Source of the DNA: Planctomycetota bacterium | GTDB taxonomy: Bacteria; Planctomycetota; MHYJ01; WSZJ01 | Direction of reading: 5' to 3' | Assembly (NCBI GenBank): GCA_016190145.1 | Contig: JACPRD010000003.1 | Location: forward strand, 17,617-81,616 | Length of the DNA stretch: 64,000 bases | Part shown: in pieces, positions 12,788-48,714 of the stretch | How the letters are laid out: each line of letters starts with the position of its first letter | How positions within the stretch are numbered: position 1 is the stretch's first letter | The notes under the pieces: model-generated | Told to the model about the DNA's origin: nothing | Database searches by the model: none | The model's input: only the letters and a program-made list of their open reading frames with translations | Translations under genes and position numbers: made by a program

Positions 12788-15700
12788 TCAAACGCGATGC
12801 GGCCGCAGGATCAGGCGCACCCCGTTGCGCACGCGGAGGGCCGTGGGGGGAGAGCCTCGTCGTTGCGCGCTCTGGGCGATTTCGAAGGGGTAGCTCCAGG
12901 CTCCGCCGCGCAGGATGCGCCATTCGCGCCAGGGCAGCTCCGGGGTGGAGGAGCCCCAGGATTCGACGCCGCCCGAGAGGTCACGGATGCCGTAGGGAGA
13001 TTCGTCCATCGGGAACGATCCGACGGGCATCGGAGTGAGTTTCCCGGCGATGGACTCGCTCGTGTGCGCGTAACTTCCGTCGTACTCGTTGCCGAACGAA
13101 AACACGCGGCCGTCCACGCCGCGGCAGGCCTTCTCGTATTCCTCTTCGTGCATCAGTTCCCAGGTCACGCCATCCCGCCGGGATTTCCACATGCAGTAGG
13201 CAACGGAGTCGAACCAGTCGATGGAGAAAACAGGACAACCCGGATTCCACTCAATCCTGGGATCCTCCGCCGGCGACGGAAGCCGGAATCGCGCCCCGTC
13301 CGCGATCCAGTATTTCTTTTCTCCTTCGCGGGGCTGGCGCCTGCGCGCTTCTTCAGCCCGGCCCGTGGACACCAGGTCGTTCAGAAATTCCAGGTACTCG
13401 GCGCAGGTGACCGGGAACTTCGCCATGAAGAAGTCGTCGATGATGCGCACCTGTTCGTCCCGTCTCCCCCCGGCCCAGCGTCCGCCGAACGTAAACGGCC
13501 CGCCGGGTACCAGGCAGGTGCCAGGCGGAATCTCGTCTTCCCGGTACAGGTTCACCTCCTGAATCCAGGACCCTCCTCGTTCAATCCAGACGGGCAGCCG
13601 CACCGGAGGGAAACCGGCGCCACGCAGGACGCAGAGCCACGACCCGCGCGGCAACTCGATCCCCGCGAGCGGCGTGATCCCCAGGACGCGCTCCGGCCCC
13701 AGCGCCAGCCGCTTGTCGACTTCCTCGTATCTGGCGATTGAGACCTCGACCCCCGCGACTTCGCGGCGCAGGCATTCCTCCGAGTGACCGAATCGGACGC
13801 CGTCCGGGAACGTCCGCACCTCCGGCACAGGGTTGTCCATGTCGGTGAGCGGTACACCGGGTCGCGGGCGGCCGCCCCGCCAGGCGACCGTGCAGCTCTC
13901 CGATATCTCCACCCGCCACGCCGGATCCCGAATGGGCCGCAGGCACTCGCAATCCCTCGTAAACGTCCGGATCGCCAGCGTCCCCGGCGCCTCCAGCCGA
14001 CGGCGGTACCGCCCTTCCGTGTCGCTCTGGATCAGCATGTTGCGGTACAGGAGCACGTCTTCGCGGAAGCGCCTCTGCTCGGCTTCGAGCAGGCGGTCGA
14101 GAAACAGGTCGCATCGGGCATCGGCCGCTTCCTTCGATTCCGGATCGACCGCAAGCGCCTGGCCGAATTCGGCGCTCGCCCTGGAGAAGGCGTCGATCCG
14201 CTCCTCTTTCAGGGCGCGGAGGCGCGCCTCCGCGTCCAGCAGGGGCCGTTTCTCCCCGATCGGCTGGCAGGGCTTGATCCGGTCGCTCCATTCCCGGACC
14301 GCCTTCTCCTGGGCCGTAATTTCGCCGCGGAGCTCGCGGAAGCGCAGGACCCAACTCCGCCCTTTCGCGATGCGATCGAGCGCCTCCTTCTGTTTCCTTC
14401 CCCGCTCCTTGACTCCCTCGAGAAAGAGCTGGATGTCGTCGTGAAGCTCCGTCGCGGTCTGGTAGCGGTCTTTCGTGCGGAAGGCCATCGCTTTCATGCA
14501 GATGGCGTCCAGTTCCGGAGGCACGGGTTCGGGAGCGGAGGGGGCGGGGTCTCGATGAGGATTCGCCCTGCGCAGCGAGTGGACACGGATCGAGGGCGGT
14601 TCGATCCGTCCGGACTTCACCTTTTCGATGACGTCGCGCTGCGACGTTCCTTCGAAGGGCGGCCGGTGCGTGAGGATCGCGTAGAGAATCCCTCCCAGGG
14701 AAAAGATGTCGCTTCGATGATCGACCTCCTCCCGCCGCCCTCCGGCCTGTTCGGGGGGCATGAAAGCGGGGGTTCCCACGACTTCTCCCTCGAGCGTCAG
14801 CTCCGGGGAACTCAGCGCGAGGCCCGATTCCGGACTTCCCGTTTCTCGTGCGGTCTCTCCCGCCAGCTTCGCCAGCCCCCAGTCCACGATCAGCGTCTCC
14901 CCGTAGTCGCCGATCATGATGTTCGAAGGCTTCAGGTCCCGGTGCACGACACCCCGGGAGTGCGCGAACGCGATGCCGAGGCAGATGTCCTGGAAAATGG
15001 CGAGGAGTCGCGCGCGGGAGAATCGCCCGGCGGCGTTCCCATCGGCGGCGGACAGGCCCCGGAGCACCGCGCCCAGGTCCTGGCCGCGGATCCTTTTCAT
15101 GCTCATGAAGAGCCGCCGTTCCCCCTCCGGCGTCGACAACTCGTCGAAGTCGTAGACGGGAACGATATTCGGATGGTCAAGGCGGGCCGCCAGGCGCGCT
15201 TCGCGCACGAAGCGCTCCGCGAGATCCCGGGAGACGCCGTCGAGCACCAGCTTGATCGCCACGTTTCGCTCGAGATGCCGGTCTCGTGCTTCCACCACGC
15301 GGCCCAGCCCGCCCCGCGCGATCTCAGCGCCCAGCTCGTAGCGTTCCCCGCGGACCCGTGGCTGGAATTCCAGCGCCGCACCTTTCCGGACGGGAGCCTC
15401 GAAAAGCCACTTTCTGAGCTCGGGGGGCGGATGCAGGTCCAGCAGCGCCTGCCGGACTCCGGAATCCACCGACGGAGGATCCGAAGCCTGGGCCGCCCGC
15501 GCGGCCTCCACGGTTTCGAGGGACTCCGGTGACAGGTGTCCGATCTCGGCAAGGTGTCCCGGAAGGTTGCGCGCGGGGTGACCCGGCACCAGGCACGCCA
15601 CGTTGAGGTCGTTCAACCACGCGGCGACGGCCTCGAGCAGTTGCTCGTTCGAGACGACTTTCAGCTGATGAGCCAGCAGGCCGAACTGGAGCTCGGAGCT

Positions 15701-15949
15701 GTGGTCCATGCGGCATTTCTCCCGGACGGAGCGGATCATCCTAGCAGCCGCCCTCCGGCCCTGTGCCCGGATTCGCGGTACGAAGATGGCGATGCTGCGG
15801 ATGTCCTCGCAAGTCCAGGTGTGCATGCCCGTGTTCGTCTCCGCCGCGCCGTGCTCGTTCATCCAGTCCAGGCCCCTGCGGATCAGCTGGAGCGTCTCCC
15901 TATCCACGTGCAGAGCTTCGTCCTGCCCGGGCGGGCCCGAGGGACTCAT
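12788..15949 (-). CDS. Ser/Thr protein kinase fused to a C-terminal FGE-sulfatase (SUMF1-like) domain
   Basis: Kinase motifs: ARGGLGRVV, VAIKL, HRDLKPSNI, DWGLA, GTPAFMPPEQ. The C-terminus has FFMAKFPVTCAEYLEFL, SIDWFDSVAYCMW, MHEEEYEKACRG, ILRGGAW. The ATG at 15949 is chosen because hand-counted third-position GC between 15710 and 15949 is about 86%. The alternative start at 15709 (MDHSSELQFGLLAHQ) has a better SD. Confidence 0.85.
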   Translation of the reverse strand: MSPSGPPGQDEALHVDRETLQLIRRGLDWMNEHGAAETNTGMHTWTCEDIRSIAIFVPRIRAQGRRAAARMIRSVREKCRMDHSSELQFGLLAHQLKVVSNEQLLEAVAAWLNDLNVACLVPGHPARNLPGHLAEIGHLSPESLETVEAARAAQASDPPSVDSGVRQALLDLHPPPELRKWLFEAPVRKGAALEFQPRVRGERYELGAEIARGGLGRVVEARDRHLERNVAIKLVLDGVSRDLAERFVREARLAARLDHPNIVPVYDFDELSTPEGERRLFMSMKRIRGQDLGAVLRGLSAADGNAAGRFSRARLLAIFQDICLGIAFAHSRGVVHRDLKPSNIMIGDYGETLIVDWGLAKLAGETARETGSPESGLALSSPELTLEGEVVGTPAFMPPEQAGGRREEVDHRSDIFSLGGILYAILTHRPPFEGTSQRDVIEKVKSGRIEPPSIRVHSLRRANPHRDPAPSAPEPVPPELDAICMKAMAFRTKDRYQTATELHDDIQLFLEGVKERGRKQKEALDRIAKGRSWVLRFRELRGEITAQEKAVREWSDRIKPCQPIGEKRPLLDAEARLRALKEERIDAFSRASAEFGQALAVDPESKEAADARCDLFLDRLLEAEQRRFREDVLLYRNMLIQSDTEGRYRRRLEAPGTLAIRTFTRDCECLRPIRDPAWRVEISESCTVAWRGGRPRPGVPLTDMDNPVPEVRTFPDGVRFGHSEECLRREVAGVEVSIARYEEVDKRLALGPERVLGITPLAGIELPRGSWLCVLRGAGFPPVRLPVWIERGGSWIQEVNLYREDEIPPGTCLVPGGPFTFGGRWAGGRRDEQVRIIDDFFMAKFPVTCAEYLEFLNDLVSTGRAEEARRRQPREGEKKYWIADGARFRLPSPAEDPRIEWNPGCPVFSIDWFDSVAYCMWKSRRDGVTWELMHEEEYEKACRGVDGRVFSFGNEYDGSYAHTSESIAGKLTPMPVGSFPMDESPYGIRDLSGGVESWGSSTPELPWREWRILRGGAWSYPFEIAQSAQRRGSPPTALRVRNGVRLILRPHRV

Positions 15950-16023
15950 GATCGAGTTTCCGCGGGTGGCCGCCCGATTGGCAGGGTGATCACGTCGCCG
16001 GGAGGGCGATTTGAGAGTCCGGA

Positions 16024-16052
16024 TTGACAAGGGGCGGGGAGCGGGGTAGAAT
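16024..16052 (+). promoter_or_regulatory. Near-consensus sigma70-type promoter TTGACA-17-TAGAAT
   Basis: ttgaca lies at 16024-16029 and tagaat at 16047-16052, a 17-nt spacer. It sits about 40 nt upstream of the ATG at 16094. Confidence 0.5.
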
Positions 16053-19307: not shown

Positions 19308-22300
19308 ATGATCGACTTCAAAACGCTCGTGCACGACCACCATGCCGTGCTGTACCGGATCGCGCTGGGGATCCTGCGCGATTCCTCCTCGGCCGAGGAC
19401 GCCGTCCAGGAGGTGTACCTGGACCTGCTGCGGCGGCCGGGGGAAGCGGCGGAGTCCCGGCATCTGAGAGCCTGGCTGGCGCGGTGCGTGATTCACCGGG
19501 CGCTGATGCAGCGCCGCGCGGCGGGCCGGCGCGACCGGCGGGAGGCTCTGTGCGTGCGGGAGGTGGCGGTGGATCCGATTCGCGAGGCGGAGCGGCGCGA
19601 GCTGCGGGTGATGGTCGAAGCCCTTCCGGAAGACCAGCGGCTGGCCGTGGACCTCCACTATCTGCGGGGGTTCAGTCTCGAGGAGGCCGCGTCGGCGCTG
19701 GCGGTGTCGGACCGGACGGTGTCGGCGCGGCTCAAGGCGGGGCTGGAGCGGCTGCGGGCGGCGCTGGCGGGCGCGGGGTTCGTGCTGCTGGCGGCCTCGC
19801 TGGAGACGGAGCTGTCGGCGGGCGAGCCGGCGCCGGTGCCGGCGGGAATGGAGGAGCGGCTTCTGGGACTGCCGGCGAGGACGGGGGCCGGGCGGGCGGA
19901 GGGAAGCGGAGGTTCGCGGGTCGTGGCGGTGCCGCTGGCGGCGGCGATCCTGGTGTGTCTGTTCTTCCTGATCGACCGGCGGGGAAGGCCGGCGGACGCG
20001 GGCGGGCCGGCGGCTGCGGCGGCCGGCGGAGGCGAAGCGGCTTCGGCCGGGCCGGACGCGGACCGGGGAAGGGCACGTGCGTCGGGCGAGCTGGACCGGT
20101 CGTCGACGGTCCGCGGCGTCGTCGTGGACGCGCGCGGAGTTCCGGTGGCGGGCGCGGCGGTGAGGCTCGAGGAACAGGAACTGAGCCGGCTCCCGGGCAC
20201 CTGCGTCGCGCGCGTCAACGGCGGCCGGCCGGGCCGCGCGACGACGTCCGGCCCGGACGGAAGGTTCTCGATCCCCGCGGGGCATGGCCGGATCGACGTC
20301 AGCGTGGAAGCCCGAGGGCGCGCGCCGGTGACGCTTCTCGACTGCTCGGCCGACGACGACCTCCGGATCGTGCTGCCGGACGCCCGCGCCCTGCGCGTGA
20401 AGGTGGCGGCCGAGGACGGCGGGCCGATCGGCGGCGCGCGGGTCGTCGTCATGCCGAACGTTCACACGTTCGCGACGCTGGACCTGGACGCGCGGCTCGT
20501 GCCGACGACGTGCGACGCGAACGAGCTGATGTTCCGCGCGGAGGCGTCGACGGACGCCGCGGGCGTGGCGTCCTTCGCGGGCCTCCCCGATCGCGAGTGC
20601 GCACTGGTTTCCGTCCGGCACCCGGAATTCGTCGAGTCGATGGTCCCGGTCGCGCTGCGGGAGCGCGACGTCCTGGAGGTCGTGCTTTCTCCAGGAAGCG
20701 ACATCGCCGGCCGCGTGCTCGACACGACCGGGTCCCCGGTTCCCGGCGCGACCGTCGTCTGCCGCCGCATGGACGGCGACGAGATCGGCATGGTTCTCGG
20801 AGACTCCGTGCGTTCCGGCGAGGACGGCTCGTTCCACTTCCGCAATGCCCCCGAAGGCCGCCGCTACTTCTGGTGCCGCGCCCCCGGCTTCGCGCCGTTC
20901 CGCGGGGTTTCGAACCATTCGCCGGTGGAGATCCGGCTCGAGCGCGGCGTCTCCGTGAGTGGCCGCGTCGTCGACGACTGCGGCGAACCGGTCCCCGGCG
21001 CGCTCGTCGGCGCCGCCGCGCTCACGGCGCAGAGCGTCCAGGGCTTTTCGCCCGTCCAGGCAGGCGCGGACGGGCGTTTCACCATCCCCGACCTCCCCCG
21101 CGGCCTGCCGCTTCGCCTCGAGGCCACGGCCCCCGGCGCGGCGCGCGTCCTCCGCGAGTTCCCGGCGCAGGACGGCGAGGCGCTCGACGCGGGCGACATC
21201 GCGCTCGGCACGGGCGCGATTCTGTCCGGGCGCGTGTCCTTCGAGGACGGCTCGCCCGCCGCGCGCCTGGAGCTCCTGCTCACCGGCCACGCGGACGAAA
21301 TCTGGGGTCTGCCGATGGACGGCCGCCCGTGGGTCCATCGCGACGTCGCGGAGGAAGCCGTCTGCGACGCCGACGGGCGGTATCGGTTCGCCGACCTCGC
21401 CCCCGGCCCCTACGTCCTCTCCTTCCGCCCCGAGGGGTGGCCGAACGGCGAGCGCCCCGTCCGGATCGCTCCCGGCGCGGCGCGCGAGTCGCTCGAGATC
21501 GTGCTCGACGGCGGATGGCCGTTGAACGTCGAGGCCGTGGACGACACGGGCGCGGCGGTCGCGGGGCTCGAGCTGGTCGCGTCCTGCGAGGGCGGCGTTC
21601 TGCGCGGACGGACCGACGAACATGGCCGCCTGCGCCTCCGCCCGACGGGCGAGTCGGCGTGGATCTGGGTTTTTGATCGCGACCTTTACACGGGTCTCGA
21701 GGATCTGAAAGTCCGCGCCGGCTCGGGCACGGCCCGGCTCGTTCTGCCGTCGCCTCGGAAGATCTCCGGCCGGGTGCTCATGGCCGACGGCAGCCCCGCC
21801 GCGGCCGAAGTCAAGTTCGCGCAGGCCGGCTTCCCCCCCCCGTTCCTCAGCAGCGACGCCGTCGAAACCGGGGAGGACGGCGCCTTCGAAATCGAAGTCC
21901 GCTCCGCGGCGCCCGTCGACCTCCACGCGAAAGTCCGCTTCCCCGAATCGAGCCGCGACGGCGGCACCCGATCTCCCTACGCCTGCGTCGTGGTCCGCGC
22001 AGGCGTCGCCCCCGGATCCACCGGAATCGAACTGCGCGCACCCGACATCGCGATCGACGGCAGCGTCACCGTCGTCGTCCAGAATCCGGAGGGCGCCCCG
22101 CTTGCCGGCGCCACCGTGGGCATCGACGATTTCGGCCTCGGCGACGCCGGCCTCCTCGCCGAGGTCGCCACCGACGAGAAAGGCGAAGTCCGCGTGCAGG
22201 GCCTGCCCCGCACACGCCTGCGCGCCTGGGCCCAGCTGCCGGACGGCATCGACGGCGAAATCGGCAGCGCCGAGCTCGTCGTCGTCCCGGATGGACAGAC

Positions 22301-22589
22301 CATCACGCTCCGCCTTCCCCGGCAGCTCCCCGTCACCGGCCGCGTCGTCGATGAGGCCGGAGAGCCCTGCCGCGATCTCCAGGTCGTGGTCTACGCCGGC
22401 GGCGAGTGGATCAACTCCATCCACACCGGCGAGGACGGCCGCTTCGAAATCTGGATCCCCCAGGACCTCCGCGCCGTCCAGCTCCGCGTCGGCGTCGAGT
22501 CGCGGTCGGAAGATCTCGGCGTGTTCGACGACGTCGATCCGCGGGCGTTCCAGAATCTTCGGGTGAAGCGTCCGAAGACGTCGCGCTAA
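19308..22589 (+). CDS. ECF-type sigma factor fused to a TM helix and ~8 CarboxypepD_reg-like repeats (membrane-tethered sigma)
   Basis: Region 2 is AEDAVQEVYLDLL...RAWLARCVIHRAL. Region 4 is LPEDQRLAVDLHYLRGFSLEEAASALAVSDRTVSARLKAGLERLR. The TM is VVAVPLAAAILVCLFFLI. Repeated G(R/V)V.D..G.PV.GA.V units follow. Confidence 0.85.
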   Translation: MIDFKTLVHDHHAVLYRIALGILRDSSSAEDAVQEVYLDLLRRPGEAAESRHLRAWLARCVIHRALMQRRAAGRRDRREALCVREVAVDPIREAERRELRVMVEALPEDQRLAVDLHYLRGFSLEEAASALAVSDRTVSARLKAGLERLRAALAGAGFVLLAASLETELSAGEPAPVPAGMEERLLGLPARTGAGRAEGSGGSRVVAVPLAAAILVCLFFLIDRRGRPADAGGPAAAAAGGGEAASAGPDADRGRARASGELDRSSTVRGVVVDARGVPVAGAAVRLEEQELSRLPGTCVARVNGGRPGRATTSGPDGRFSIPAGHGRIDVSVEARGRAPVTLLDCSADDDLRIVLPDARALRVKVAAEDGGPIGGARVVVMPNVHTFATLDLDARLVPTTCDANELMFRAEASTDAAGVASFAGLPDRECALVSVRHPEFVESMVPVALRERDVLEVVLSPGSDIAGRVLDTTGSPVPGATVVCRRMDGDEIGMVLGDSVRSGEDGSFHFRNAPEGRRYFWCRAPGFAPFRGVSNHSPVEIRLERGVSVSGRVVDDCGEPVPGALVGAAALTAQSVQGFSPVQAGADGRFTIPDLPRGLPLRLEATAPGAARVLREFPAQDGEALDAGDIALGTGAILSGRVSFEDGSPAARLELLLTGHADEIWGLPMDGRPWVHRDVAEEAVCDADGRYRFADLAPGPYVLSFRPEGWPNGERPVRIAPGAARESLEIVLDGGWPLNVEAVDDTGAAVAGLELVASCEGGVLRGRTDEHGRLRLRPTGESAWIWVFDRDLYTGLEDLKVRAGSGTARLVLPSPRKISGRVLMADGSPAAAEVKFAQAGFPPPFLSSDAVETGEDGAFEIEVRSAAPVDLHAKVRFPESSRDGGTRSPYACVVVRAGVAPGSTGIELRAPDIAIDGSVTVVVQNPEGAPLAGATVGIDDFGLGDAGLLAEVATDEKGEVRVQGLPRTRLRAWAQLPDGIDGEIGSAELVVVPDGQTITLRLPRQLPVTGRVVDEAGEPCRDLQVVVYAGGEWINSIHTGEDGRFEIWIPQDLRAVQLRVGVESRSEDLGVFDDVDPRAFQNLRVKRPKTSR

Positions 22590-22806
22590 GCGGACTTGGG
22601 TAATTTCCTTCCGACATGTCTTGACCCGGATTACGGCACCCTTCGACTCGCCCTGCGGGCTCGCTCAGGGTAAGCCGGGCCGGCGGAAAGCTCCCGCCGG
22701 TCCGAACGGACATCATCGGCCCGGCTTAGCAGGTCGGCTGCGGCGGGACGAAGACCGGCGCCGGATTCGGCGCCACCCGTGGTATCGTCCGAACTCACGG
22801 CCTCAC

Positions 22807-23724
22807 ATGAACGACCACGACGACTGGATTCGATACCTGCTCGAGCGCGGCCTGCTGTCGAAGGAGCAGGCGGCGCAGGTCGACTGCCTCCGCGGGCAGC
22901 CCTCCGATTTTTCCGGCCCCGCGGAAGGATCTCCCCCTTCAACGCCGCGGACGCCGGCGCCGCCGGCACTGGTTGCCTGCGCGCCTTGCGGGCAGGTGTT
23001 CACCGTGGCGGGTCTGAACCCGGAACAGCCCCCGGCGTGCCCGAGGTGCGGCGGGACGACCCGGCCGGTGTCCCTGGGCGGCCGGCTGGAACAGGCGTCG
23101 CCGTCCGCCTCTGCCCGCGAGCCGGAAGACCGGCCGTTCGGTCGCTACCGGCTCCGGCGCGAACTGGGCCGCGGGGGCATGGGCGCCGTCGTCGGGACGC
23201 CGCACTACATGTCACCGGAGCAGGCCTCGGGCGGATCGAACCGGATCGGCCCGCCGTCGGACGTCTTCAGCTTCGGCGTCATCCTCTACCGCGCCCTGTC
23301 GGGCCGCCTGCCGTTCCCGGGAGATGTCGTCGACGCGCTTCACGCCACCCTGCACGCGCATCCCCAGCCCCCCGAGCGACCGGGCGCGCGCATCTCGCGC
23401 GCGGCAAAGGCGGTCTGCCTCAAGTGCCTCGAGAAGGACCCCGCGAAGCGCTACCCGGACGGCGGCGCGCTGGTCGCCGAAATGCGCAGCCTGGCGGACG
23501 GCGAGGACGTCAAGGCGAGGATGCCGGAAACGCGACGCCGGCCGCGGGCGACCGTGCAGGCGCGGCAGCCGACGCACGCGCCTCGGCGGATCTGGCGGGG
23601 CCGCAGGATCGCGAACGCCGGGAGGCGGAGGAGTTCCTGGCGTCCCTCGGGCCGTGAACGCGGCGCCGTCCAAGCTCCTCGCGGCGGGCAATATCCCGGA
23701 CGCACGGGCGTTGATCTGACATGA
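22807..23724 (+). CDS. Kinase-derived protein: zinc ribbon plus a Hanks kinase domain lacking subdomains II-VII (in-frame core deletion)
   Basis: The N-terminus is MNDHDDWIRYLLERGLLSKEQ, as in neighbouring kinases. It has CAPCG...CPRCGG. LGRGGMGAV runs directly into VGTPHYMSPEQ, then SDVFSFGVILY and KCLEKDPAKRY. There is no VAIK, HRD or DFG. The stop overlaps the next ATG (ATGA). Confidence 0.6.
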   Translation: MNDHDDWIRYLLERGLLSKEQAAQVDCLRGQPSDFSGPAEGSPPSTPRTPAPPALVACAPCGQVFTVAGLNPEQPPACPRCGGTTRPVSLGGRLEQASPSASAREPEDRPFGRYRLRRELGRGGMGAVVGTPHYMSPEQASGGSNRIGPPSDVFSFGVILYRALSGRLPFPGDVVDALHATLHAHPQPPERPGARISRAAKAVCLKCLEKDPAKRYPDGGALVAEMRSLADGEDVKARMPETRRRPRATVQARQPTHAPRRIWRGRRIANAGRRRSSWRPSGRERGAVQAPRGGQYPGRTGVDLT

Positions 23725-25631: not shown

Positions 25632-27302
25632 ATGATCCGCGTCACCTGCACGTGCGGCAAAAGATTCCGCGGACCCGACGCCGCGCGCGGACGGACGATC
25701 CGCTGCACGGGATGCGGGCGGTCGATCGCGGTGCCTGCGGACACACCGGCGACCGAAGGTGCGCGCGGGCCGGCGAGCGCGGCGCAGGCGATGGCGTCGC
25801 GGGTCGGCGCCGCGGCGGCGGAGCGTACGACGTTTGGGGAGCTCTGGTCGGCGCTGCGCAAACGCGCGCTCCACCTCGACTTCGTCCCGCCGCAGGAACA
25901 TCTGCGGCGGTGCATGCGGTGCTCTCTGACGACTTTCGACGTGCCGAAACCCTGCCCCAAATGCGGCGCCGCGACCATCGGCGTCCGGCTCGCCGACGTC
26001 AACAGCGGGCGTGACCGCTCGTGGCTCGTGGCGGTCGGCGCAATCGCGGCGGCGCGACGGCGGCTGTCGCTGTTCCGGCGGTGCGCGTTGCTCGTCGCCG
26101 TGCTCGCCGCCGCCGGCACGGGCGCGTGGCTCGCGGCGCGCGGCGCGCTCACGGGCAGGATCGTGTTCGGGCTGGGCGTGGCAGCGGCTCTGGCAGGCGC
26201 GCTCGCGTCGTACGCGGCCCTCCTGCTCGCCCGCCGCGCCCTCGAGGTTCTCCACCCCGTCCTGCGTGGAAGCGCCTCTCCCGACACCGCCGACGAGCGC
26301 CTCGTCGCCCAGGTCGAAGAGCGCTACCTCATCCCCTTCATCCAGCGCCACTCCGGATTCAGCCAGACCGCCGACCTCATTCCGGCCGACGAGATCGACC
26401 TTCTCCTCACGCTCGTCGCACGCCAGGGATTCACGCTTCGCCGCGAGCACATCTACGAGTTTCTCGCGGCGTGCGCCCTTCGCGCCGATTACCAGGAGTT
26501 CAAGGCCGAGTTCCTTCGCTTCGAACTCTCCAACCCCGATACTTTCGATGTCTACGCCTCGCTCTTCCCCTCCGCCGACGCCGACGCTTCCCGCCTGCCA
26601 TTCCTCCAGCAGTACCTCGACGAAGGCGCCCGCCGACCCGAAACGCAGGCGCTCTGGGCGCGCATCGAGGGAATCCGAAAAGAAAAACGCCTCGCGACGT
26701 TCGAGGCGGAGCTGGAGAAGAGCGCGCCCGCGTCGAAATCCGTGCGACTTGAGGACGTTGACCGGGTCGCGCCGGCGAACTTTCAGCTCCTGGTGGGTCT
26801 GATGTACCAGGCCGAGGGGCACGTCGTTCACGGGATGACCTCGACGGTCGATCGGCCGGCGGTGAGCGTGGCCGAGAAGACCGGGGAGAAAACGGCGGTG
26901 CTGGCGAAGCTCTCGAAGGAGCCGGTGGGGGAAGGCGTAGTGCGGGATCTCGCGGAGGCGCGGGACTACTACCGCTGCCGGAAGGCGGTGCTGGTGGCCA
27001 ACGCGGAGTTTTCGCAGGCTGCCGCGAAGGCCGCTTCTGAGAAGGATGTCCATCTCGCCGGCCGCGAGGAGCTCCGGAAGATGATCGATGTGTTCAACGC
27101 GGCGCCGCGGGAGTTCGCACGGCTGACGCTGATCCTCCAGCCCTGGGCGCCGGGCGTGGACGAGGAGCTGATGAGCTTCGAATTCAACGAAGCGCTGCAG
27201 CCGCGCTCCGCGTCCGAGAAAATGTCGTTCGATGCGGCGGACGACATGATTGCCCAGCTCAAGAAGAGGGCGAAGGCGCGCGAGGAAGCGGAGGGAGAAT
27301 GA
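25632..27302 (+). CDS. Zinc-ribbon / multi-TM protein with C-terminal restriction-endonuclease-like (Mrr_cat-like) domain
   Basis: Motifs seen: CTCGKRFRG...IRCTGCG and CMRC...CPKCG. The helices are WLVAVGAIAAA, CALLVAVLAAAGTGAWLAA and IVFGLGVAAALAGALASYAALLLA. The C-terminus reads ANFQLLVGLMYQAEGHVV...VDRPAVSV...TAVLAKL...AVLVANAEFSQAA...VHLAGREEL. Confidence 0.8.
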   Translation: MIRVTCTCGKRFRGPDAARGRTIRCTGCGRSIAVPADTPATEGARGPASAAQAMASRVGAAAAERTTFGELWSALRKRALHLDFVPPQEHLRRCMRCSLTTFDVPKPCPKCGAATIGVRLADVNSGRDRSWLVAVGAIAAARRRLSLFRRCALLVAVLAAAGTGAWLAARGALTGRIVFGLGVAAALAGALASYAALLLARRALEVLHPVLRGSASPDTADERLVAQVEERYLIPFIQRHSGFSQTADLIPADEIDLLLTLVARQGFTLRREHIYEFLAACALRADYQEFKAEFLRFELSNPDTFDVYASLFPSADADASRLPFLQQYLDEGARRPETQALWARIEGIRKEKRLATFEAELEKSAPASKSVRLEDVDRVAPANFQLLVGLMYQAEGHVVHGMTSTVDRPAVSVAEKTGEKTAVLAKLSKEPVGEGVVRDLAEARDYYRCRKAVLVANAEFSQAAAKAASEKDVHLAGREELRKMIDVFNAAPREFARLTLILQPWAPGVDEELMSFEFNEALQPRSASEKMSFDAADDMIAQLKKRAKAREEAEGE

Positions 27303-28510
27303 TCCAGCCGGAAGACGTGGTCATCCGGAAGAAGTCGGGTGAGCCGGCGTTCTCGAGCGCCGACGACAGCCGCATCGGGCTCCATCTCCGCCGCATGATC
27401 GGCGACGCGCTCGACATGCGCGCGACGGACCTGCACCTCGAGCCCGACGGCGCGCAGGTGCGCGTCCGGGCGCGCGTGGACGGCTTCCTGCGCGACGTGG
27501 CGCACCTCGACGGGGACACGGGCGGGCGGCTCGTGTCGGCCATCAAAGTGCTTTGCGACCTCGACATCGCCGGGCGCAGCCCGATGCAGGACGGATCGTT
27601 CTCCGCATCGGTGAAGGGCAAGCCGATCGAGATGCGCGTCTCCACTCTAGAGGAAATCGGCGGCGAAAAACTCGCACTGCGCATCCTGGAGGCGGAGTCG
27701 GCCGCGCAGGACATGAGCAAGCTGGGCCTGTCGCATCGCTCGGAGAACGAGCTGAAGGCGTTCCTCGCCCGTTCACAGGGCATGCTCGTCGTCAGCGGCC
27801 CGACCGGCAATGGCAAGTCCACGACCCTTCACTCCATGCTCCGGGCCGTCGACCGCAGGCGCCGCAACGTCATCGCCATCGAGGACCCCGTCGAGTCACG
27901 GATCGAGTACGTCACCCACGTCGCCGTCAACGCCCGCGCCGGCACGACCTTCGCCGGCGCGCTCCGGAACGCCCTTCGACAGGACCCCAACGTGCTCATG
28001 ATCGGCGAGATCCGCGACGCCGAGACGGCGTCGATCGCCATCCAGTCCGGCCTGACCGGCCATCTCGTTCTTTCGACCGTCCACGCGCGCGACGCGCTCG
28101 GCACCGTGACCCGCCTCGCCGACCTCGGCGTCGAGCCGCACCTGATCGCCGACGTCCTGAATTTCGCGCTCGCGCAGCGGCTCGTCCGCGTCCTCTGCCC
28201 GCGCTGCCGAAGGCCCGTCCCCGAGCGCGAGTTGCGCGACCATCCGCTTCGCTCGCTCATCAGCGGCACGATCTTCGACGCCGGCCGCTGCCAGGCGTGC
28301 GGCGGCTCCGGCTATCGCGGGCGCGTCGGCGTGTTCGAGCTCGTGAAGATGACGGACCGGCTGAGGCCGCTCATCGCGGGAAGAGCGCCCGAGAGCGAGT
28401 TGCGCAAAGCCGCCGAGGCGGACGGCGCTGTTCCGGTACTTTTCGCGGCCATGGAGCGAGTGAACGAGGGCGTGACGTCGCTCGAAGAAGTGGAGCGGGT
28501 CATCGGGTAA
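27299..28510 (+). CDS. GspE/PulE/PilB-family secretion ATPase (short form, no N-terminal N1E domain)
   Basis: Walker A is GPTGNGKST, Walker B region is NVLMIGEIRD, His box is GHLVLSTVHA. The tetracysteine motif is CPRC...CQACGGSGYRGRVGVFE. The ATG overlaps the upstream stop (ATGA). Confidence 0.9.
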   Translation: MIQPEDVVIRKKSGEPAFSSADDSRIGLHLRRMIGDALDMRATDLHLEPDGAQVRVRARVDGFLRDVAHLDGDTGGRLVSAIKVLCDLDIAGRSPMQDGSFSASVKGKPIEMRVSTLEEIGGEKLALRILEAESAAQDMSKLGLSHRSENELKAFLARSQGMLVVSGPTGNGKSTTLHSMLRAVDRRRRNVIAIEDPVESRIEYVTHVAVNARAGTTFAGALRNALRQDPNVLMIGEIRDAETASIAIQSGLTGHLVLSTVHARDALGTVTRLADLGVEPHLIADVLNFALAQRLVRVLCPRCRRPVPERELRDHPLRSLISGTIFDAGRCQACGGSGYRGRVGVFELVKMTDRLRPLIAGRAPESELRKAAEADGAVPVLFAAMERVNEGVTSLEEVERVIG

Positions 28511-29660: not shown

Positions 29661-31784
29661 TCAAAACCTCTTCATCTCCACTTGAATCTCCCCGCTCTCC
29701 AGGATCCTGAGCTCCTGCCGATGGTGTCCTTCGCGCATGACGTCGAGCTGCACGCCGCAGCCGCCGCCGAGGGCGAAGCCATTGAAAGAGAAGCGGCCGT
29801 CTTCGCCGGTCTTGATGATGGGCGACTTCAGGCGGCCGGGCAGGAATGAGCCGGATTCACCGGAGCCGAGGCTGAGACCTGCGGGGGCGTCGGCAAAGCC
29901 CAGCCACGCCGTCGCGCCAGCGGAGGTCATGCCGATGGCGGAGACGGAGACATGCGCGCCGGCGAGGGGGCGGCCGTCCTCGCCGACCACGATCCCGCGG
30001 ACTTCGGCGTCGGCGGCGCGGAGGCGGACGTCCAGGCCGCCGGCGGCGATGGAATCCGAAGGGAACACGGCCATCCCGCATCCTTCCTTCCACACGGCGA
30101 TCGGCCCGTCGGAGAAGACGGCGGGGAAATCAAAGCGTCCCAGGTCGTCGGTCGTGGTGGGAAGCGGGTTGAGGGCGCTGCCGTCGGAAACCAGGACGAG
30201 GGCGCCGGGCAGCGGGCTGCCTTCGCGATCCCGGACGGTGCCCCAGACGCGAAGCGAGGGTCTCGGCGTCAACTCGACGACGATTTCCGGCATCCCGGGG
30301 CCGGCGTCGGCGGTCCGGGTCTCCGGCTTGTAGCCCTGCGCGTCGACGTCGAACTGAAGGTCGCCCTCGCTCAGGACGGCGTCGAGGCTGAAGCGTCCCT
30401 CCATGTCGGTGAGAACCGGGTCGGGGCCGTTGAAGTTGGAGCCGGACAGCCCGACGAAGCCGCGGGGTACCGGCACCTGTTGCGAATACCGGACGCGGGC
30501 GCCGGCGACGGCGAAGCCGGCGGTATTGACGACGCGCCCGCGGATAGGGAGTCCCAGGACGATTTCGAGGTCGCGGATGCACTCGAGTCCGCCGGCGAGC
30601 TCGATGCGGTTCTCCGTGAACTCCACCGAATCCGCATCGGCTTGTGGACCTCTGGCTCTGCGGTTGGCCACCCACCTTTCCGTCGCAAAGGGGACGTAGC
30701 CGGGAGCCATTGTCGTGACGATCCAGGTGCCGGCCGCCGCCGGCACGCTGAAGTTCCCGGCAGCGTCCGTGCGCGTTTCGACAGCGTCGGCCTTTTCCGG
30801 AATGGGCTCGTGGCTGAACGGGGTCAGACGAACGACGGCGTCCGGGACGGCGTGGCGCGAATCGCGGTCGAGCACCCTTCCCTTGAAAGTGGCCTGCATG
30901 GAAATTGGAGCGTGTTCTTCCCGCGCGCCCGATGCGTCGTTTCCCGGAGCCGCCGGCAATGTCGCGGCGTCCTCCGATGCCGCGAGCCGCGACAAGGGGC
31001 CACCCGCGCCGGAGACCTCTTCGCCCCCCGGCTCTCCGCGGCGGACGCGCAGCCTCCACGCCACGAACAACGTCAGCACCAGCGCTGCCATCACGCCCGC
31101 CGCCAGCCTCCGCGCGCGCGGTCCCGCCGCGACCGGGACCGGACCCGCGAGCGGCGTCTCCCTCGCAATCCGCTTCACCTCGCGCATCACCCGGTCGGGC
31201 GCGGGGTCCGCCGCCGCCGCCGAAAGCTCCGTCTCCAGTGCCGCGAGCGCCAGCGCCACGCCGGCTCCCGCGAGCGCCCGCTTCAGCCGCTCGTGAGCCG
31301 CATTCAGCCGCCACGCGACCGTCCCCTCGGGCACCCGCATCGCCGCCGCGATCTCGCCGTACGACAGTGCGTGCTCGTATCTCAGCCGCACCGTCCGCCG
31401 CAGGTCTTCGTCCAGCCCCTCCACGGCGCGCTTCACCCGTACCGTCCTCTCTTCACGCTCCATCATCGCCATCGGCGTCGGGCCTCCCTCGAATTCCATG
31501 GAAGCGGCGGGCGGGAGCGCAACGGCGGCGCGGCGGACATGCCGTGCCTTGTCGAGCGCGATGCGGTAGAGCCAACCTGCGAACGCGGCGGGTTCCCGGA
31601 GGGATCGAATGGAAGAGACCATTTCGCGGAACGTCTCCTGCGTCGCGTCCTCCGCGTCGGCCTCGTGCGCGAGTTCGGACCGGAGCAGGCGCCAGACGTC
31701 GCCATACACCGCGACCGCCAGCGTTTCCAGCGCTTCCCGATCCCCGGCTCGTGCCTTCCCGACCAGATCCTGGCTGACCTGCAT
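29661..31784 (-). CDS. ECF-type sigma factor fused to a TM helix and CarboxypepD_reg-like repeats (paralog of 19308..22589)
   Basis: Region 2 is AEDATQETFREMV...FAGWLYRIALDKA. Region 4 is LDEDLRRTVRLRYEHALSYGEIAAAMRVPEGTVAWRLNAAHERLK. The TM is LAAGVMAALVLTLFVAW. Repeats are GRVLDRDSRHAVPDAVVRL, GRVVNTAGFAVAGARVRY, GTVRDREGSPLPGALVLV and GIVVGEDGRPLAGAHVSV. I trimmed the start to MQVSQ. Confidence 0.85.
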   Translation of the reverse strand: MQVSQDLVGKARAGDREALETLAVAVYGDVWRLLRSELAHEADAEDATQETFREMVSSIRSLREPAAFAGWLYRIALDKARHVRRAAVALPPAASMEFEGGPTPMAMMEREERTVRVKRAVEGLDEDLRRTVRLRYEHALSYGEIAAAMRVPEGTVAWRLNAAHERLKRALAGAGVALALAALETELSAAAADPAPDRVMREVKRIARETPLAGPVPVAAGPRARRLAAGVMAALVLTLFVAWRLRVRRGEPGGEEVSGAGGPLSRLAASEDAATLPAAPGNDASGAREEHAPISMQATFKGRVLDRDSRHAVPDAVVRLTPFSHEPIPEKADAVETRTDAAGNFSVPAAAGTWIVTTMAPGYVPFATERWVANRRARGPQADADSVEFTENRIELAGGLECIRDLEIVLGLPIRGRVVNTAGFAVAGARVRYSQQVPVPRGFVGLSGSNFNGPDPVLTDMEGRFSLDAVLSEGDLQFDVDAQGYKPETRTADAGPGMPEIVVELTPRPSLRVWGTVRDREGSPLPGALVLVSDGSALNPLPTTTDDLGRFDFPAVFSDGPIAVWKEGCGMAVFPSDSIAAGGLDVRLRAADAEVRGIVVGEDGRPLAGAHVSVSAIGMTSAGATAWLGFADAPAGLSLGSGESGSFLPGRLKSPIIKTGEDGRFSFNGFALGGGCGVQLDVMREGHHRQELRILESGEIQVEMKRF

Positions 31785-31976
31785 CGTCCACCTCCCGATG
31801 TCCCGCCACCACAAGAATAGAGAAGGGAGCCCGGGATTCCTTTGCGGAATTTGCCAGGTTCTTCAGATCGTCACAAAACGCAGAGGCAATGCGACTTGCG
31901 TCACGATCAGGACCTCCCGCGGCACGCTTCCATGCGAGGCGGCTTCAGCCGGCTCTCAGGTAGACTGAGCCTTCAG

Positions 31977-34900
31977 ATGAGCTTCGACCCGCAGGCGTTG
32001 TCCCGGCGCGATCGCGCCTTCGTCGAGCTCGCGCGCGCGCGCGGGTGGGTTTCGGACCAGGCGCTGGATGAGATTTCGTCCGAAGTCGCCGGCGACCTGG
32101 CGGAGGCCCTTCAGGCAGCGGGCCTTCTGACCGTGGAGCAGACGGTGTCCCTGTGGGAGGCGGTGGACGGGGTTCCCGGGGGTTCGATGCCGCGCGTGCC
32201 GGCGCCCGGGGTCAGGGAGGGCGAGGGGTTCGGGACGTACCGGCTGGTGAAGGAACTGGGACGCGGGGGAATGGGGGCGGTTTACCGCGCGGTGCACGGG
32301 GAGACGGGGCGGGAGGTGGCGCTCAAGGTGATGCTGCAGCCGGCGGCGGAGAGCGCGCCGGAGGCGGAGCGCTTCCGGCGCGAATCGGAGCTCGTCGCGC
32401 GGCTCGGCGGGCATCCGCACCTCGTCGCGATACACGAAGTCGGTGTGGTCGCGGATCGACTGTACTTCACGATGGACTATGTGGAAGGGCGCTCGGTGAA
32501 GCAGCGGATCGCGGAGGAGGGGCCTCTTCCGGGCCGCGAGGCCGCGCGGATCTGCGCGGAGATTGCGGGGGCGCTGGATTTCGTGCACCGGGCGGGTGTG
32601 GTGCACCGTGACGTGAAGCCGCACAACATGCTGCTGGACGCGGCGGGGAAGGCGTACCTGACGGACTTCGGCCTCGCGAAGGACATCGTGGGGCCGGGGG
32701 GGCTCACGGTGAGCGGGACGGCGCTGGGGACGCCGGCGTACATGAGTCCGGAGGTGGCGGCGCACGGGGGGCGGCGTGCGCAGCCGGCGTCCGACGTGTA
32801 CTCGCTGGGGGCGTCGCTGTACGAGATGCTGACGGGGCGGTTCCCGTTCGCGGGGGCGACGGGGATGGAGCTGGTGAAGCTGGTGGTGGAGGCGGAGCCG
32901 CCGCCACCGCGGGCGATGCGCACGGGGATCCATCCCGATCTCGAGGTGATCTGCCTCCGGGCGATGCACCGGGACCCGGCGCGCCGCTACGGATCGGCGG
33001 GAGGCATGGAAGCGGACCTGCGGCGGTGGCTGGGGGGCGAGTCCATTCACGCGCGGCCGGTGGGTTCGCTCGAGCGGATGGCGACGCGGGCGCGGCGGCA
33101 CCGCGCGGCGGTTGCGGCGGCGGCGGCTTCGGCCCTCGCGCTGCTCGCGATCGCTGCCTGGTCGGGGCGGGAGTGGTGGACCCGCGAGCAGGCGCGGCGC
33201 GCGGCGGACGAGGACCGCGCGGACCGGATCCGGCGCGTGACCCCGCTCGCCCAGGAGGGAGCCCTTCTCATCCGGCAGGCCGACGCCGCGGAGGCGAACG
33301 GGCGGCCGGCGGAGCGGAACGCCCTCGCGGAGCGCGCCGTGGCGGCGCTGCGCGCGGCCGTGGAAGTCCAGCCCGCGAACGCCGACCTGTGGTTCGACCT
33401 CGGCCGGGCGTGCCGCCGGGCCCGGCAGGCGCCGGAAGCGCTGGCGGCGCTCGAGGAGGCCGTCCGCCTCAACCCCGGGCACTCCCTCGCGTGGTTCGAA
33501 CACGGGCTGATCGCGCAGGACGAGTTCCTCCGGCTCCGCGGGACGGTGTTCCGGAACGTGTGGCTGACGCGCCCCAACGTCGTCGGGTATCGCGTCACGA
33601 AGGAACCGACCTTTCACGTGGTCCGCGCCGGCGGGACCGGCGACACCGACACTCAGTGGCGGCAGGTCGCGGCGCGCGACTTCGGTCGCGTCCTCGCGAC
33701 GGGCGCCGTCGCGGAGCGCGCCGCCTACGGGAAGGCAATGGGGCTCTACTTCGAGGAGAAGCACGAGGAGGCGCTGGCCGAGCTGGACCGCGCATTCGCG
33801 CTCAACCCGTATTTCGTCCCGGTTCTCCGCGCGCAGGCCGAGATCCGCGAGTGGCGCTCGAGCGACGCCCGCCAGGGGCTCCCCTGGCGCCGGCGCTACT
33901 ACGAACTGCAGCCCCGGAATCCCGAGGCCGCGCTCGACTATGCCCTGTCGCTCGCCGTCCTCGGGGAGCGCGCCGAAGCCGCCCGAGTCGTCACGGAGAT
34001 CATGGAAGGGCGCGAGGAACTCGAACTCCTCGTGCGCGCCGGCTGGATCCTCCTGTCCGCCAACCAGGTCGCCGCGGCCGGGGACTTCACCCGCCGCGCG
34101 ACGGCCGCCGCACGCTCCGATCCCGAGAAACTCTACGCAGTCAACTTCACGTGGCTCTTCCTCCTCCAGGTCCGCCGACACGACGAAGCGCTCGCCCTCG
34201 TGGACGCCCACGCCGCCCTGCTCGGCCCGGAGAACGCCGCCGCGATGCGCGGGGAGACCTTCTCCGAGGGCGGCCGCCACGCCGACGCCGCGCGCGAGTA
34301 CCGCCGGCTCCCGCCCCGCTCCGCGCTCTGGTCCGCGCACGCTTCCGACATCGCCTGGGCGGAGTGGATGTGCGGCAACACCGCCCGCGCGCTCGAGGCC
34401 GCGGACGCCGCCGTCGCCCACAGCGCCGCCGGGAACGCCCACACCCACCGCGGGATCGCCCGCCTCGAAAGCGGCCTCTACGCCGGAGCCCTGGAGGACT
34501 TCGAGGCCGCCCGCAAGGCCGATCCCTCCAACCCCAATTCCTACAGCAACACCGCCGCGACCCTCTTCATGCTCGACCGCTACGCCGAGGCCATGGAATT
34601 CCTCGAGCTCGGCTTCCTGCGGTCCCCCGTGCCGGAGGGGGTGAAGGAGCAGGTGAAGAAGTCCTTCGTGGGGCTCAAGAAGCGCGCGCGGGAGGCGGGG
34701 TCCGCGCTCGAGGCGGGGGACTGCGCGGAGAGCATCGTGGCGATGCTGCAGCTCGCGATCATGCAGGCCGGCGTGGACGCCGACTCGACAGCGGCGGCGC
34801 GCGAGGGACTGCGCGTGATGCTCTGGGCGCTTCAGGAGTTCTACTTCCGCAAGGACCTGCTCAAGCGCTCCGCAGGGGCGGGAGAGCGGCACCTGCGGAT

Positions 34901-35096
34901 CCGCCGCTGCGGAAACGTGCTGTACAAGCAGGCGAGGGCGCTGGCGGCGCAGGGGAAGAAGGAGGAAGCGCTGGCGGAGCTGGAGGCGGCGCTGGAGGAG
35001 GGATTCGAGGACCGCGGGCGGCTCGACGGGGAGAAAGTGTTTGACGCACTGCGTCAAGAACCGCGGTTCGCCGCCGTGCGCGAGAAGTGCCGGTGA
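31977..35096 (+). CDS. Ser/Thr protein kinase with TM helix and large TPR/helical-repeat C-terminal region
   Basis: Kinase motifs: GRGGMGAVY, VALKV, HRDVKPHNM, DFGLA, GTPAYMSPE. The TM is AAVAAAAASALALLAIAAW. TPR-like repeats follow (ADLWFDLGRACRRARQAPEALAALEEAVRLNPGH...). I trimmed the start to MSFDPQ. Confidence 0.9.
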   Translation: MSFDPQALSRRDRAFVELARARGWVSDQALDEISSEVAGDLAEALQAAGLLTVEQTVSLWEAVDGVPGGSMPRVPAPGVREGEGFGTYRLVKELGRGGMGAVYRAVHGETGREVALKVMLQPAAESAPEAERFRRESELVARLGGHPHLVAIHEVGVVADRLYFTMDYVEGRSVKQRIAEEGPLPGREAARICAEIAGALDFVHRAGVVHRDVKPHNMLLDAAGKAYLTDFGLAKDIVGPGGLTVSGTALGTPAYMSPEVAAHGGRRAQPASDVYSLGASLYEMLTGRFPFAGATGMELVKLVVEAEPPPPRAMRTGIHPDLEVICLRAMHRDPARRYGSAGGMEADLRRWLGGESIHARPVGSLERMATRARRHRAAVAAAAASALALLAIAAWSGREWWTREQARRAADEDRADRIRRVTPLAQEGALLIRQADAAEANGRPAERNALAERAVAALRAAVEVQPANADLWFDLGRACRRARQAPEALAALEEAVRLNPGHSLAWFEHGLIAQDEFLRLRGTVFRNVWLTRPNVVGYRVTKEPTFHVVRAGGTGDTDTQWRQVAARDFGRVLATGAVAERAAYGKAMGLYFEEKHEEALAELDRAFALNPYFVPVLRAQAEIREWRSSDARQGLPWRRRYYELQPRNPEAALDYALSLAVLGERAEAARVVTEIMEGREELELLVRAGWILLSANQVAAAGDFTRRATAAARSDPEKLYAVNFTWLFLLQVRRHDEALALVDAHAALLGPENAAAMRGETFSEGGRHADAAREYRRLPPRSALWSAHASDIAWAEWMCGNTARALEAADAAVAHSAAGNAHTHRGIARLESGLYAGALEDFEAARKADPSNPNSYSNTAATLFMLDRYAEAMEFLELGFLRSPVPEGVKEQVKKSFVGLKKRAREAGSALEAGDCAESIVAMLQLAIMQAGVDADSTAAAREGLRVMLWALQEFYFRKDLLKRSAGAGERHLRIRRCGNVLYKQARALAAQGKKEEALAELEAALEEGFEDRGRLDGEKVFDALRQEPRFAAVREKCR

Positions 35097-48075: not shown

Positions 48076-48714
48076 GTGCAACGTCTGACGGAAACTGCAA
48101 TTGGAAAAGCACCCACCGGCATCTTCTCCAGGCCAGAGGTGGCTTGCTGGATGGGGGGCAGCCCTGGCCGGCAATTCAGCCTGCTCAAGCGGGCCATGGC
48201 AAGCGGCGAAGTCGTGCGGATCCACCGCGGACTGTACTGCCTCGCAGCCAAGTACATGCGGCACAAGGTCGATCCCCTCGTCCTGGCCCAGCGGATCTAC
48301 GGCCCGGGCTACATCAGCCTGGAAACAGCCCTGTCCTGGCACGGCTGGATCCCCGAAGCCGTCTATGCGACCACCAGCGTGTCGCTGGACCGCTCTCGCG
48401 AAATCGACACGCCGCTCGGGCATTTCAGTTTCACACGTGTTCCACAGACCACTTTCTACGCCGAGGTGTTCCGCGTGGAGACGAATGGAAGCGGCAGCTT
48501 TCTGTTGGCGTCGCCGCTGAAGGCACTCGTCGACTACGTCTACGTGCACCATTGCGACTGGACCTCGGCCCGACCAGTCGTCGAGAGCCTGCGTGTCGAC
48601 GAAGGTCTGCTCTCCGGCGTGGACGCCACGGCGGTTGATCGACTCCTGGCCAACTACGCTTCCCGGAGAGTGCGGCGGTTCCTCCAGGGTTTGAGAAGGG
48701 ACTTGAGACGATGA
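48076..48714 (+). CDS. abiEi: Type IV toxin-antitoxin system antitoxin, AbiEi family
   Basis: The segment GIFSRPEVACWMGGSPGRQFSLLKRAMASGEVVRIHRGLYCL, GYISLETALSWHGWIPEAV matches the AbiEi_4 winged-helix pattern. It sits upstream of and overlaps an AbiEii gene. Confidence 0.85.
   Translation: MQRLTETAIGKAPTGIFSRPEVACWMGGSPGRQFSLLKRAMASGEVVRIHRGLYCLAAKYMRHKVDPLVLAQRIYGPGYISLETALSWHGWIPEAVYATTSVSLDRSREIDTPLGHFSFTRVPQTTFYAEVFRVETNGSGSFLLASPLKALVDYVYVHHCDWTSARPVVESLRVDEGLLSGVDATAVDRLLANYASRRVRRFLQGLRRDLRR

Follow-up and report, generated by a model that had tools for sequence, protein, structure and literature searches.

On the forward strand of a Planctomycetota contig (JACPRD010000003.1), within a stretch of 64,000 nucleotides with a G+C content of ~69% (the window), a gene for a 556-residue protein of the inner membrane, here called A, is followed by a gene for a 403-residue ATPase of the GspE/PilB family, here called B. 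A carries two zinc ribbons, a hairpin of two transmembrane (TM) helices, an all-alpha domain and an Mrr-type restriction-endonuclease (REase) domain whose active site has degenerated; B has the complete core of a secretion-type motor and no N1 domain. The two genes overlap, and three to four lineages of uncultured Planctomycetota carry the pair. We propose, with a probability of about one half, that they form a lineage-specific operon in which A, no longer catalytic, serves B alone as a membrane adaptor or sensor and tethers this motor at the membrane. The features of the pair, and the loci of the closest paralogue of B, are listed in Table 1.

Both reading frames show the third-position G+C bias of real genes, with values of 0.85 (A) and 0.81 (B) at third codon positions and of ~0.5 at second positions. 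The TGA stop codon of A (27300-27302) and the ATG start codon of B (27299-27301) are fused as ATGA, and a GGAGG (27290-27294) lies inside the 3' end of A, 4 nt before the start of B. The overlap, read from the sequence as translational coupling, had already been noticed in the original prediction, a model's reading of the nucleotide sequence alone, and both open reading frames (ORFs) and their overlap lie where it had placed them. A scan for promoters and terminators gave no signal exceeding that of shuffled controls.

Table 1. Features of the A-B pair in the window and loci of the sister paralogue of B (pLDDT, predicted local distance difference test; MAG, metagenome-assembled genome)
Feature	Coordinates	Strand	Description or basis
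Gene A	25632..27302	+	556-aa inner-membrane protein: two zinc ribbons, two-TM hairpin, all-alpha domain, inactive Mrr-type REase domain, C-terminal helix
Zinc ribbon 1, aa 1-35, C6/C8/C25/C28	25632..25736	+	alignment; model strands 2-33, pLDDT ~85
Zinc ribbon 2, aa 89-118, C94/C97/C108/C111	25896..25985	+	alignment; pLDDT ~94
Two TM helices, aa 151-169 and 177-200, ~7-residue loop	26082..26231	+	hydropathy; model helices
All-alpha cytoplasmic domain, aa 208-370	26253..26741	+	common to the whole family; PF.xR motif 235-239, E254, D286
Mrr_cat-type REase fold, degenerate site Q385/V411/L424, K426 kept	26760..27086	+	Pfam, alignment, Foldseek
C-terminal amphipathic helix (MSFDAADDMIAQLKKRAKAREE), candidate ATPase-docking element	27222..27296	+	paired clade only; model helix 533-555
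Shine-Dalgarno GGAGG and ATGA stop/start overlap	27290..27302	+	sequence reading; translational coupling
Gene B	27299..28510	+	403-aa N1-less GspE/PilB-family ATPase, N2 and C-terminal domain
Paralogue loci	L003:8001-10474, L004:8001-10453, L006:7782-10259, L056:7001-8212		arrangement conserved across Planctomycetota, including Brocadiae and Planctomycetia MAGs

The nuclease-like domain of A was identified by a Pfam match to Mrr_cat (PF04471) over residues 377-485 (E=4.9e-13; 49.6 bits against a cut-off of 21), accompanied by a weak match to NA-iREase1 (28.3 bits against a cut-off of 27). NCBIfam returned nothing useful for A, and PHROGs returned nothing. An AlphaFold2 model computed from a 25-sequence family alignment (mean pLDDT 83.9) consists of two beta ribbons (residues 2-33 and 90-117) with a disordered linker between them, a helical hairpin (127-169 and 174-207), an all-alpha region (219-364), an alpha/beta domain (381-490) and, at the C-terminal end, a disordered stretch followed by a terminal helix (533-555, pLDDT 80-94). 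Foldseek matches of this model in the PDB were confined to the C-terminal domain and all had the restriction-endonuclease fold, the best being AF1548 (1y88), MspJI, EcoT38I, AspBHI, EndoMS and Cdn1. The domain, modelled with a pLDDT above 90, has the alpha/beta core of the PD-(D/E)xK fold and also resembles the REase domains found in Avs4, Cdn1 and Can2, which are immune proteins. No match to the all-alpha domain was found in Pfam or the PDB.

Ribbon 2 is the best-conserved N-terminal element of the A family, with C108 and C111 invariant and C94 nearly so. The first knuckle of ribbon 1 is CxC in the clade of ATPase-paired proteins and CxxC in the wider family, and this ribbon shows a weak similarity to the N-terminal zinc ribbon of AglX (7zok, E=0.039). 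Clusters of arginines flank the hairpin on both outer sides, so that, following the positive-inside rule, both termini of A are predicted to be cytoplasmic; according to hydropathy and the model, both large parts of the protein face the cytoplasm, and the periplasmic loop has only ~7 residues. The two Cys4 ribbons and the similarity to Mrr_cat had been anticipated from the sequence, and both hold, the latter with a significant Pfam score and the support of Foldseek. Of the approximately three TM helices expected, only two were recovered; the presumed third one (131-141) has 11 residues, and its counterparts in homologues are hydrophilic.

When 1.84 billion representatives were scanned exhaustively with HMMER, ~25 full-length relatives of A were obtained at E<1e-30, with identities of 27-34% and E-values down to 1e-53, followed by weaker matches that covered mainly the C-terminal part and finally the Mrr_cat domain alone. 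At E<1e-10 the family counts ~90 members. This wider family (P0124-P0147) belongs to Planctomycetota, is annotated merely as 'restriction endonuclease' and has the same zinc-ribbon/two-TM/Mrr_cat architecture as A, some members carrying an N-terminal GYF_2 domain. The canonical Mrr motif (NFE...GDQGADV...QAKLY, or D-D-Q-K) is kept in 20 of 22 aligned members, whereas all ATPase-paired A proteins read NFQ...DRP(A/P)V...L(A/G)(K/L/R), that is, D-V-L-(K/L/R), and Mrr_cat scores drop from 83-100 bits in the wider family to 46-50 bits in the paired clade. Compared with the 22 relatives, the A protein of the window has Q385 in place of the helix-1 Glu, V411 in place of the catalytic Asp and L424 in place of the Gln of QxK, and thus lacks the catalytic D...(E/Q)xK signature of the Mrr_cat fold. 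Lys426 is kept in this protein only, being Leu or Arg in the other three paired sequences (P0002, P0003 and that of L047). The reading of L-A-K at the (E/Q)xK position, from which the original prediction had suspected an inactive nuclease, was therefore correct and even understated the loss. The NA-iREase1 match is no sign of inactivity, since that model matches the intact-motif members of the family more strongly. With respect to the Mrr, AF1548 and MspJI-type enzymes, whose alpha/beta fold it shares and whose E...D...QxK residues are kept by its close relatives, A differs in these three replacements, in its membrane anchor, its N-terminal zinc ribbons and its novel alpha domain, and in the absence of any domain that reads DNA modification, such as SRA or the Mrr N-terminal domain.

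Between the window and P0002 the degenerate domain is 61% identical, and the rest of A is 60-64% identical; being conserved as well as the remainder of the protein, it is still under constraint. Alternatively, A might have stayed a nuclease whose catalytic residues have moved to other positions, with B as its ATP-dependent regulator, loosely in the manner of restriction systems that combine a nucleoside triphosphatase (NTPase) with a nuclease. D407, E415, E419 and K420, close to the old active site, are conserved in the window A, P0002 and P0003, and K426 persists in the first of them. Nevertheless, the positions of V411 and L424 are hydrophobic in every paired A, K426 is replaced by Leu or Arg in the others, and D407, E415 and E419 are equally conserved in the wider family beside the canonical triad, and are thus not new acquisitions. 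Moreover, we know of no GspE-type ATPase that acts as the partner of a nuclease, and we consider this explanation very unlikely.

The paired clade has, in addition, something that its relatives lack: a tail of 53-67 residues that ends in S[FY]D.ADD[LM][IM]..[LM]K[KQ]RAK and contains the terminal helix of the model. No copy of this motif was found elsewhere in the window, in 13 related loci or near the paralogous ATPase described below.

Two further traits link the A family with ATPases of the T2SSE family. The GYF_2 domain found at the N-terminus of P0132, P0139, P0142 and P0147 is also present on a planctomycetal T2SSE ATPase (P0097), and a short T2SSE ATPase (P0099) carries a C-terminal double zinc ribbon. 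These shared accessory modules hint at a common regulatory input, though only circumstantially.

B matches Pfam T2SSE (PF00437) with E=3e-105, and its residues 15-401 align end to end with N1-less constructs of Vibrio EpsE (delta-90, E ~1e-87). It contains Walker A (GPTGNGKST, 167-175), an Asp box (195-199), Walker B (229-240), a His box (253-262) and a tetracysteine site (C300/C303/C331/C334) that aligns with the CPDC...CPKC of EpsE. No N1E/T2SSE_N domain (MshEN, PF05157) was detected, and B begins at about residue 100 of EpsE. Its scores fall far below the NCBIfam equivalog cut-offs for both GspE (TIGR02533, 389 against 630) and PilB (TIGR02538, 380 against 676). Judged by its sequence, B is a complete motor core of the GspE/PilB family, as had been proposed for a short-form ATPase, and an orthologue of neither protein; like its homologues, it is presumably hexameric. 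GspE/PilB motors are understood almost solely within pilus and secretion machines, where they dock through N1 onto GspL or PilM and act with GspF/PilC. B shares with GspE/EpsE and PilB the N2 and C-terminal domains and all the motifs listed above, and differs from them in lacking the docking domain, in having no gene for GspF/PilC, GspL/PilM, a pilin, a secretin or a peptidase nearby, and in being coupled to a two-TM protein with a dead nuclease domain.

For the comparison of genomes, the A-B pair was defined as an A-type gene followed on the same strand by a T2SSE gene for 401-403 residues, either overlapping or at most 9 nt away. Pairs of this kind were found in the window, in loci L001 and L002 (P0002), in a JGI contig (P0003) and in L047. 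Among 5.8 billion clusters, the only full-length close homologues of A were P0002, from a Planctomycetota MAG, and P0003, each ~61% identical to A and each followed by an overlapping gene for a 403-residue T2SSE protein, 83% (P0002 locus) or 82% (JGI) identical to B. L047, a contig of 2 kb, encodes an ATPase 72% identical to B (P0006) behind a 250-residue fragment that corresponds to the C-terminal half of an A-type protein (61% identity). Across pairs, A is 58-61% and B 72-83% identical. The ATGA overlap is repeated in L001, L002 and the JGI contig, and a 9-nt spacer takes its place in L047. Metagenome matches to the alignment of the close clade were rejected as members, being zinc-ribbon look-alikes of the N-terminus over 34-58 residues only.

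The window and L001 share no related genes on the flanks of the pair, which in L001 is ~3 kb away from gyrB, with dnaN and dnaA no more than ~10 kb off. Since the pair is kept while its surroundings differ, A and B move as a unit. A larger, four-gene cluster was considered, the ORFs upstream (626 aa) and downstream (352 aa) of the pair in the window having no Pfam match and seeming possible partners; it was rejected because these ORFs are unrelated to the flanks in L001. The same data bear on the notion that the adjacency is purely historical, a duplicated ATPase gene having come to lie downstream of a nuclease gene in decay, without any functional connection between the two. The small number of lineages, all of them related uncultured Planctomycetota, speaks for such an accident. 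However, the pair has been retained through a complete change of flanks, with its 4-nt overlap kept in three lineages, and A remains full length and 58-61% identical, with an inactive domain no less conserved than the remainder and a conserved motif newly gained, all of which makes mere adjacency extremely unlikely.

Outside this clade the partnership was not seen. The genome scan with the 25-sequence alignment lacked a usable conserved stretch and was repeated with 16 intact-motif sequences, recovering five loci of the wider family, all of them in Planctomycetota. No T2SSE gene occurs within 3-6 kb downstream in the four that cover this side (L008, L009, L010 and L012), nor within the available flanks of 34 loci matching the Mrr_cat domain alone. 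Members of the wider family have varying neighbours (kinases, TPR proteins, YceI and a Panacea-domain protein), none of them conserved, and no C-terminal helix. The original prediction had asked whether the pairing is conserved in other genomes: it is, and with different flanks, but it is confined to one tiny clade of three to four lineages. The broader idea of a general system made of a membrane nuclease and a secretion ATPase does not survive, because the wider family keeps an intact motif and is unpaired in the loci checked. As suspected, the pair seems to be undescribed; full-text literature searches found no description of an Mrr_cat-T2SSE pair, of an orphan PilB in Planctomycetes or of the ATPase clade of B. 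What is new is this partnership and its evolutionary signature, both proteins belonging to known superfamilies.

Beside one of the wider-family genes, L010 carries a SocA/Panacea-domain antitoxin-like gene (7522-8079), placed after the gene for an intact-motif membrane nuclease. The arrangement may hint at a capacity of the ancestral stand-alone nucleases to act as toxins.

The homologues of B break sharply into a set of 401-405 residues with 481-864 bits (55-100% identity) and ordinary PilB/GspE proteins with at most 369 bits. Neighbour-joining places the A-paired ATPases in one clade and the group with 55-60% identity to B in its sister clade. The members of the latter (P0007-P0015) have 403 residues like B and the same N-terminus (MI.PED...KKSGE), and they occupy a conserved context of their own. 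Their gene is divergent from a ~1,230-residue STK-TPR/Prok-RING gene, which in turn is preceded by a 375-residue ORF, an FHA gene and an aminotransferase gene, the last of which adjoins dnaA at the loci that extend far enough. An amidohydrolase gene follows downstream, with a gap of zero to 3 nt, wherever this side is readable (it is not in L056). The nearest outgroup, P0017, is also divergent from a large TPR/Prok-RING gene. In one contig the two paralogues are separated by ~17 kb that include dnaA, dnaN and gyrB. An A-type protein was never found beside the sister paralogue in the loci examined. The existence of this sister clade in its own conserved context indicates that B is a duplicate of an already orphan planctomycetal ATPase and not a displaced pilB or gspE. 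In the window, an STK-TPR gene (31842-35096) was examined as a possible orthologue of the paralogue's neighbour and rejected, its kinase domain alone matching (38%).

Components of a pilus or secretion machine were also looked for around the pair. Of the larger coding-frame ORFs of the window (from ~170 aa), 36 were scanned and gave no Pfam match to T2SSF, secretin, prepilin peptidase or pilin, no prepilin motif of the G[FM]TLIE type appears in its six frames, and the window has no second T2SSE gene. This agrees with the absence of GspF/PilC, pilin, secretin and prepilin peptidase reported by the original prediction. The 20-kb L001 locus is likewise devoid of pilin, platform, secretin and peptidase genes. 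B could nevertheless serve a type IV pilus or type II secretion machine encoded elsewhere, as an additional motor for extension or regulation, with A as its localiser, brake or activator. The core of B is fully canonical, sharing 40-47% identity with true PilB/GspE, A lacks a periplasmic domain, and accessory factors control PilB-type motors in other bacteria. In addition, canonical PilB-like proteins with T2SSE_N or FHA are abundant in Planctomycetota, and pilus machines therefore exist in the phylum. Against this, B belongs to a distinct 403-residue clade without N1, whose sister paralogue and nearest outgroup are orphans too, with no pilus genes within 7-8 kb, and the two larger loci examined around the pair itself are equally empty of them. 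On balance, we regard an auxiliary pilus or secretion motor as possible but doubtful.

The resemblance of A to nucleases of immune systems raises the further possibility of an anti-phage, anti-plasmid or abortive-infection module, in which A would sense foreign DNA at the membrane by means of its dead nuclease fold and zinc ribbons and B would be a nucleoside-triphosphate-consuming effector or switch. PADLOC matched A to ZorD, although only over its Mrr-like nuclease end (positions 930-1063 of 1071, E=8e-12), and the likeness of the REase domain to those of Avs4, Cdn1 and Can2 points in the same direction, as do the patchy distribution and variable genomic positions of the pair. Inactive REase (iREase) domains are found in NTPase-based conflict systems, such as the Orc/CDC6-iREase-HerA/FtsK neighbourhoods (PMC10853773), and like A-B these couple a dead REase fold to an NTPase. 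In the pair, however, the NTPase is of the T2SSE type and not STAND, AAA+ or HerA. A has no helicase domain and no accompanying ZorABC, so that the full set of Zorya components is not present. PADLOC contains no model for the pair and gave only generic P-loop models or fragments for B, and the PHROGs search of A was empty. The neighbouring genes form no defence island but have housekeeping or signalling functions, including gyrB, dnaN and dnaA near the pair of L001, no mobile-element genes flank it, and AbiEii, the only defence-like gene of the window, is 20 kb away. A role in defence is thus quite unlikely. Of the roles that the original prediction had suggested (uptake or export of nucleic acid at the membrane, defence or signalling), defence therefore finds no support in PADLOC, PHROGs or the gene neighbourhood.

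We return to the proposed role of A as an inactive, membrane-bound adaptor or sensor that serves B alone. The history suggested by the comparisons would start from a stand-alone, membrane-anchored Mrr-type nuclease of Planctomycetota. After acquisition of the ATPase gene, a duplicated copy of the GspE/PilB type without N1, A would have lost its catalytic Asp and Gln and gained the conserved C-terminal helix. Most probably, the inactive REase fold and both ribbons provide a scaffold for binding or sensing, with nucleic acid as a possible ligand, and the C-terminal region of A may recruit B to the inner membrane or regulate it there. As the loop on the periplasmic side has only ~7 residues, A alone cannot build a pilus or pseudopilus or replace a platform protein; given that A has essentially no periplasmic part, A and B would work on the cytoplasmic face of the membrane or through unlinked partners.

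Several points weigh against this proposal. Contact between A and B, a docking role of the tail helix, the ligand and the output in the cell are all deduced from genes and their sequences. With three to four lineages known, two of which have closely similar A proteins (P0002 and P0003), the statistical basis is narrow. The ribosome-binding site of B overlaps the final codons of the tail, which could account for part of the tail's conservation, although it would not explain the whole 20-residue motif. Two proteins of the wider family, P0148 and P0155, have degenerated independently of the paired clade, and the genome scan, based on peptide patterns of the intact motif, is blind to degenerate members without an ATPase partner. 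The ancestral 403-residue paralogue is itself an uncharacterised orphan motor. Finally, the A-B sequence is present in four groundwater-metagenome runs, all of DNA, and no RNA run carrying it was found.

A more specific version of the proposal is a minimal machine independent of pili, in which a GspE-type hexamer seated on the C-terminal helix of A would use ATP to move, hold or hand over nucleic acid bound by the ribbons and the inactive REase domain at the cytoplasmic face of the membrane. We consider it rather unlikely; if true, it would represent a new use of a motor of the secretion superfamily and the domestication of a nuclease as a substrate receptor. More generally, the pair is a case of an N1-less motor copy with an entirely different, dedicated membrane partner, and A records in its sequence the passage from a stand-alone membrane nuclease to the acquisition of an ATPase neighbour, the loss of catalysis and the appearance of a new C-terminal motif. 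Should A and B interact, they would offer a compact system to study how hexameric motors are recruited and what they do without a filament. The analysis also draws attention to a conserved 403-residue orphan ATPase near the replication origin of many Planctomycetota. The practical weight of the module is limited by its rarity and its restriction to uncultured organisms.

Other genes of the window have unusual features of their own. On either side of the pair, two ORFs (19308-22589, + strand; 29661-31814, - strand) encode N-terminal ECF-type sigma domains (Sigma70_r2 and r4) fused to arrays of CarboxypepD_reg/Ig-like repeats, an unusual architecture. Between the first of these and A, the ORF at 22621-23724 (+) contains a zinc ribbon (CAPCG...CPRCGG) and, read by eye, a glycine loop (GRGGMGAV) that runs straight into GTPHYMSPEQ. 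It looks like a Ser/Thr kinase without its catalytic core, either a pseudokinase or a pseudogene.

Farther downstream, the AbiEii-type gene (48711-49559, +; Pfam E=1e-30) encodes the nucleotidyltransferase toxin of a type IV toxin-antitoxin/abortive-infection pair. It is followed by two ORFs that overlap by 4 nt, the first (49618-51642, +) encoding 674 residues with no Pfam match and the second (51639-55154, +) 1,171 residues with a C-terminal LanC-like cyclase (E=8e-41); from their sequences, the two are a possible lanthipeptide-synthetase-like pair. Ser/Thr kinases with an FGE-sulfatase (formylglycine-generating-enzyme-like) domain, either in the same protein or in the one that follows, are encoded at 2329-6033 (+), 6027-7100 (+) and 12788-16030 (-) of the window, and also at L001:1-5637 and L009:2469-5948. 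Their recurrence near genes of the A family probably reflects the general abundance of such proteins in the phylum.

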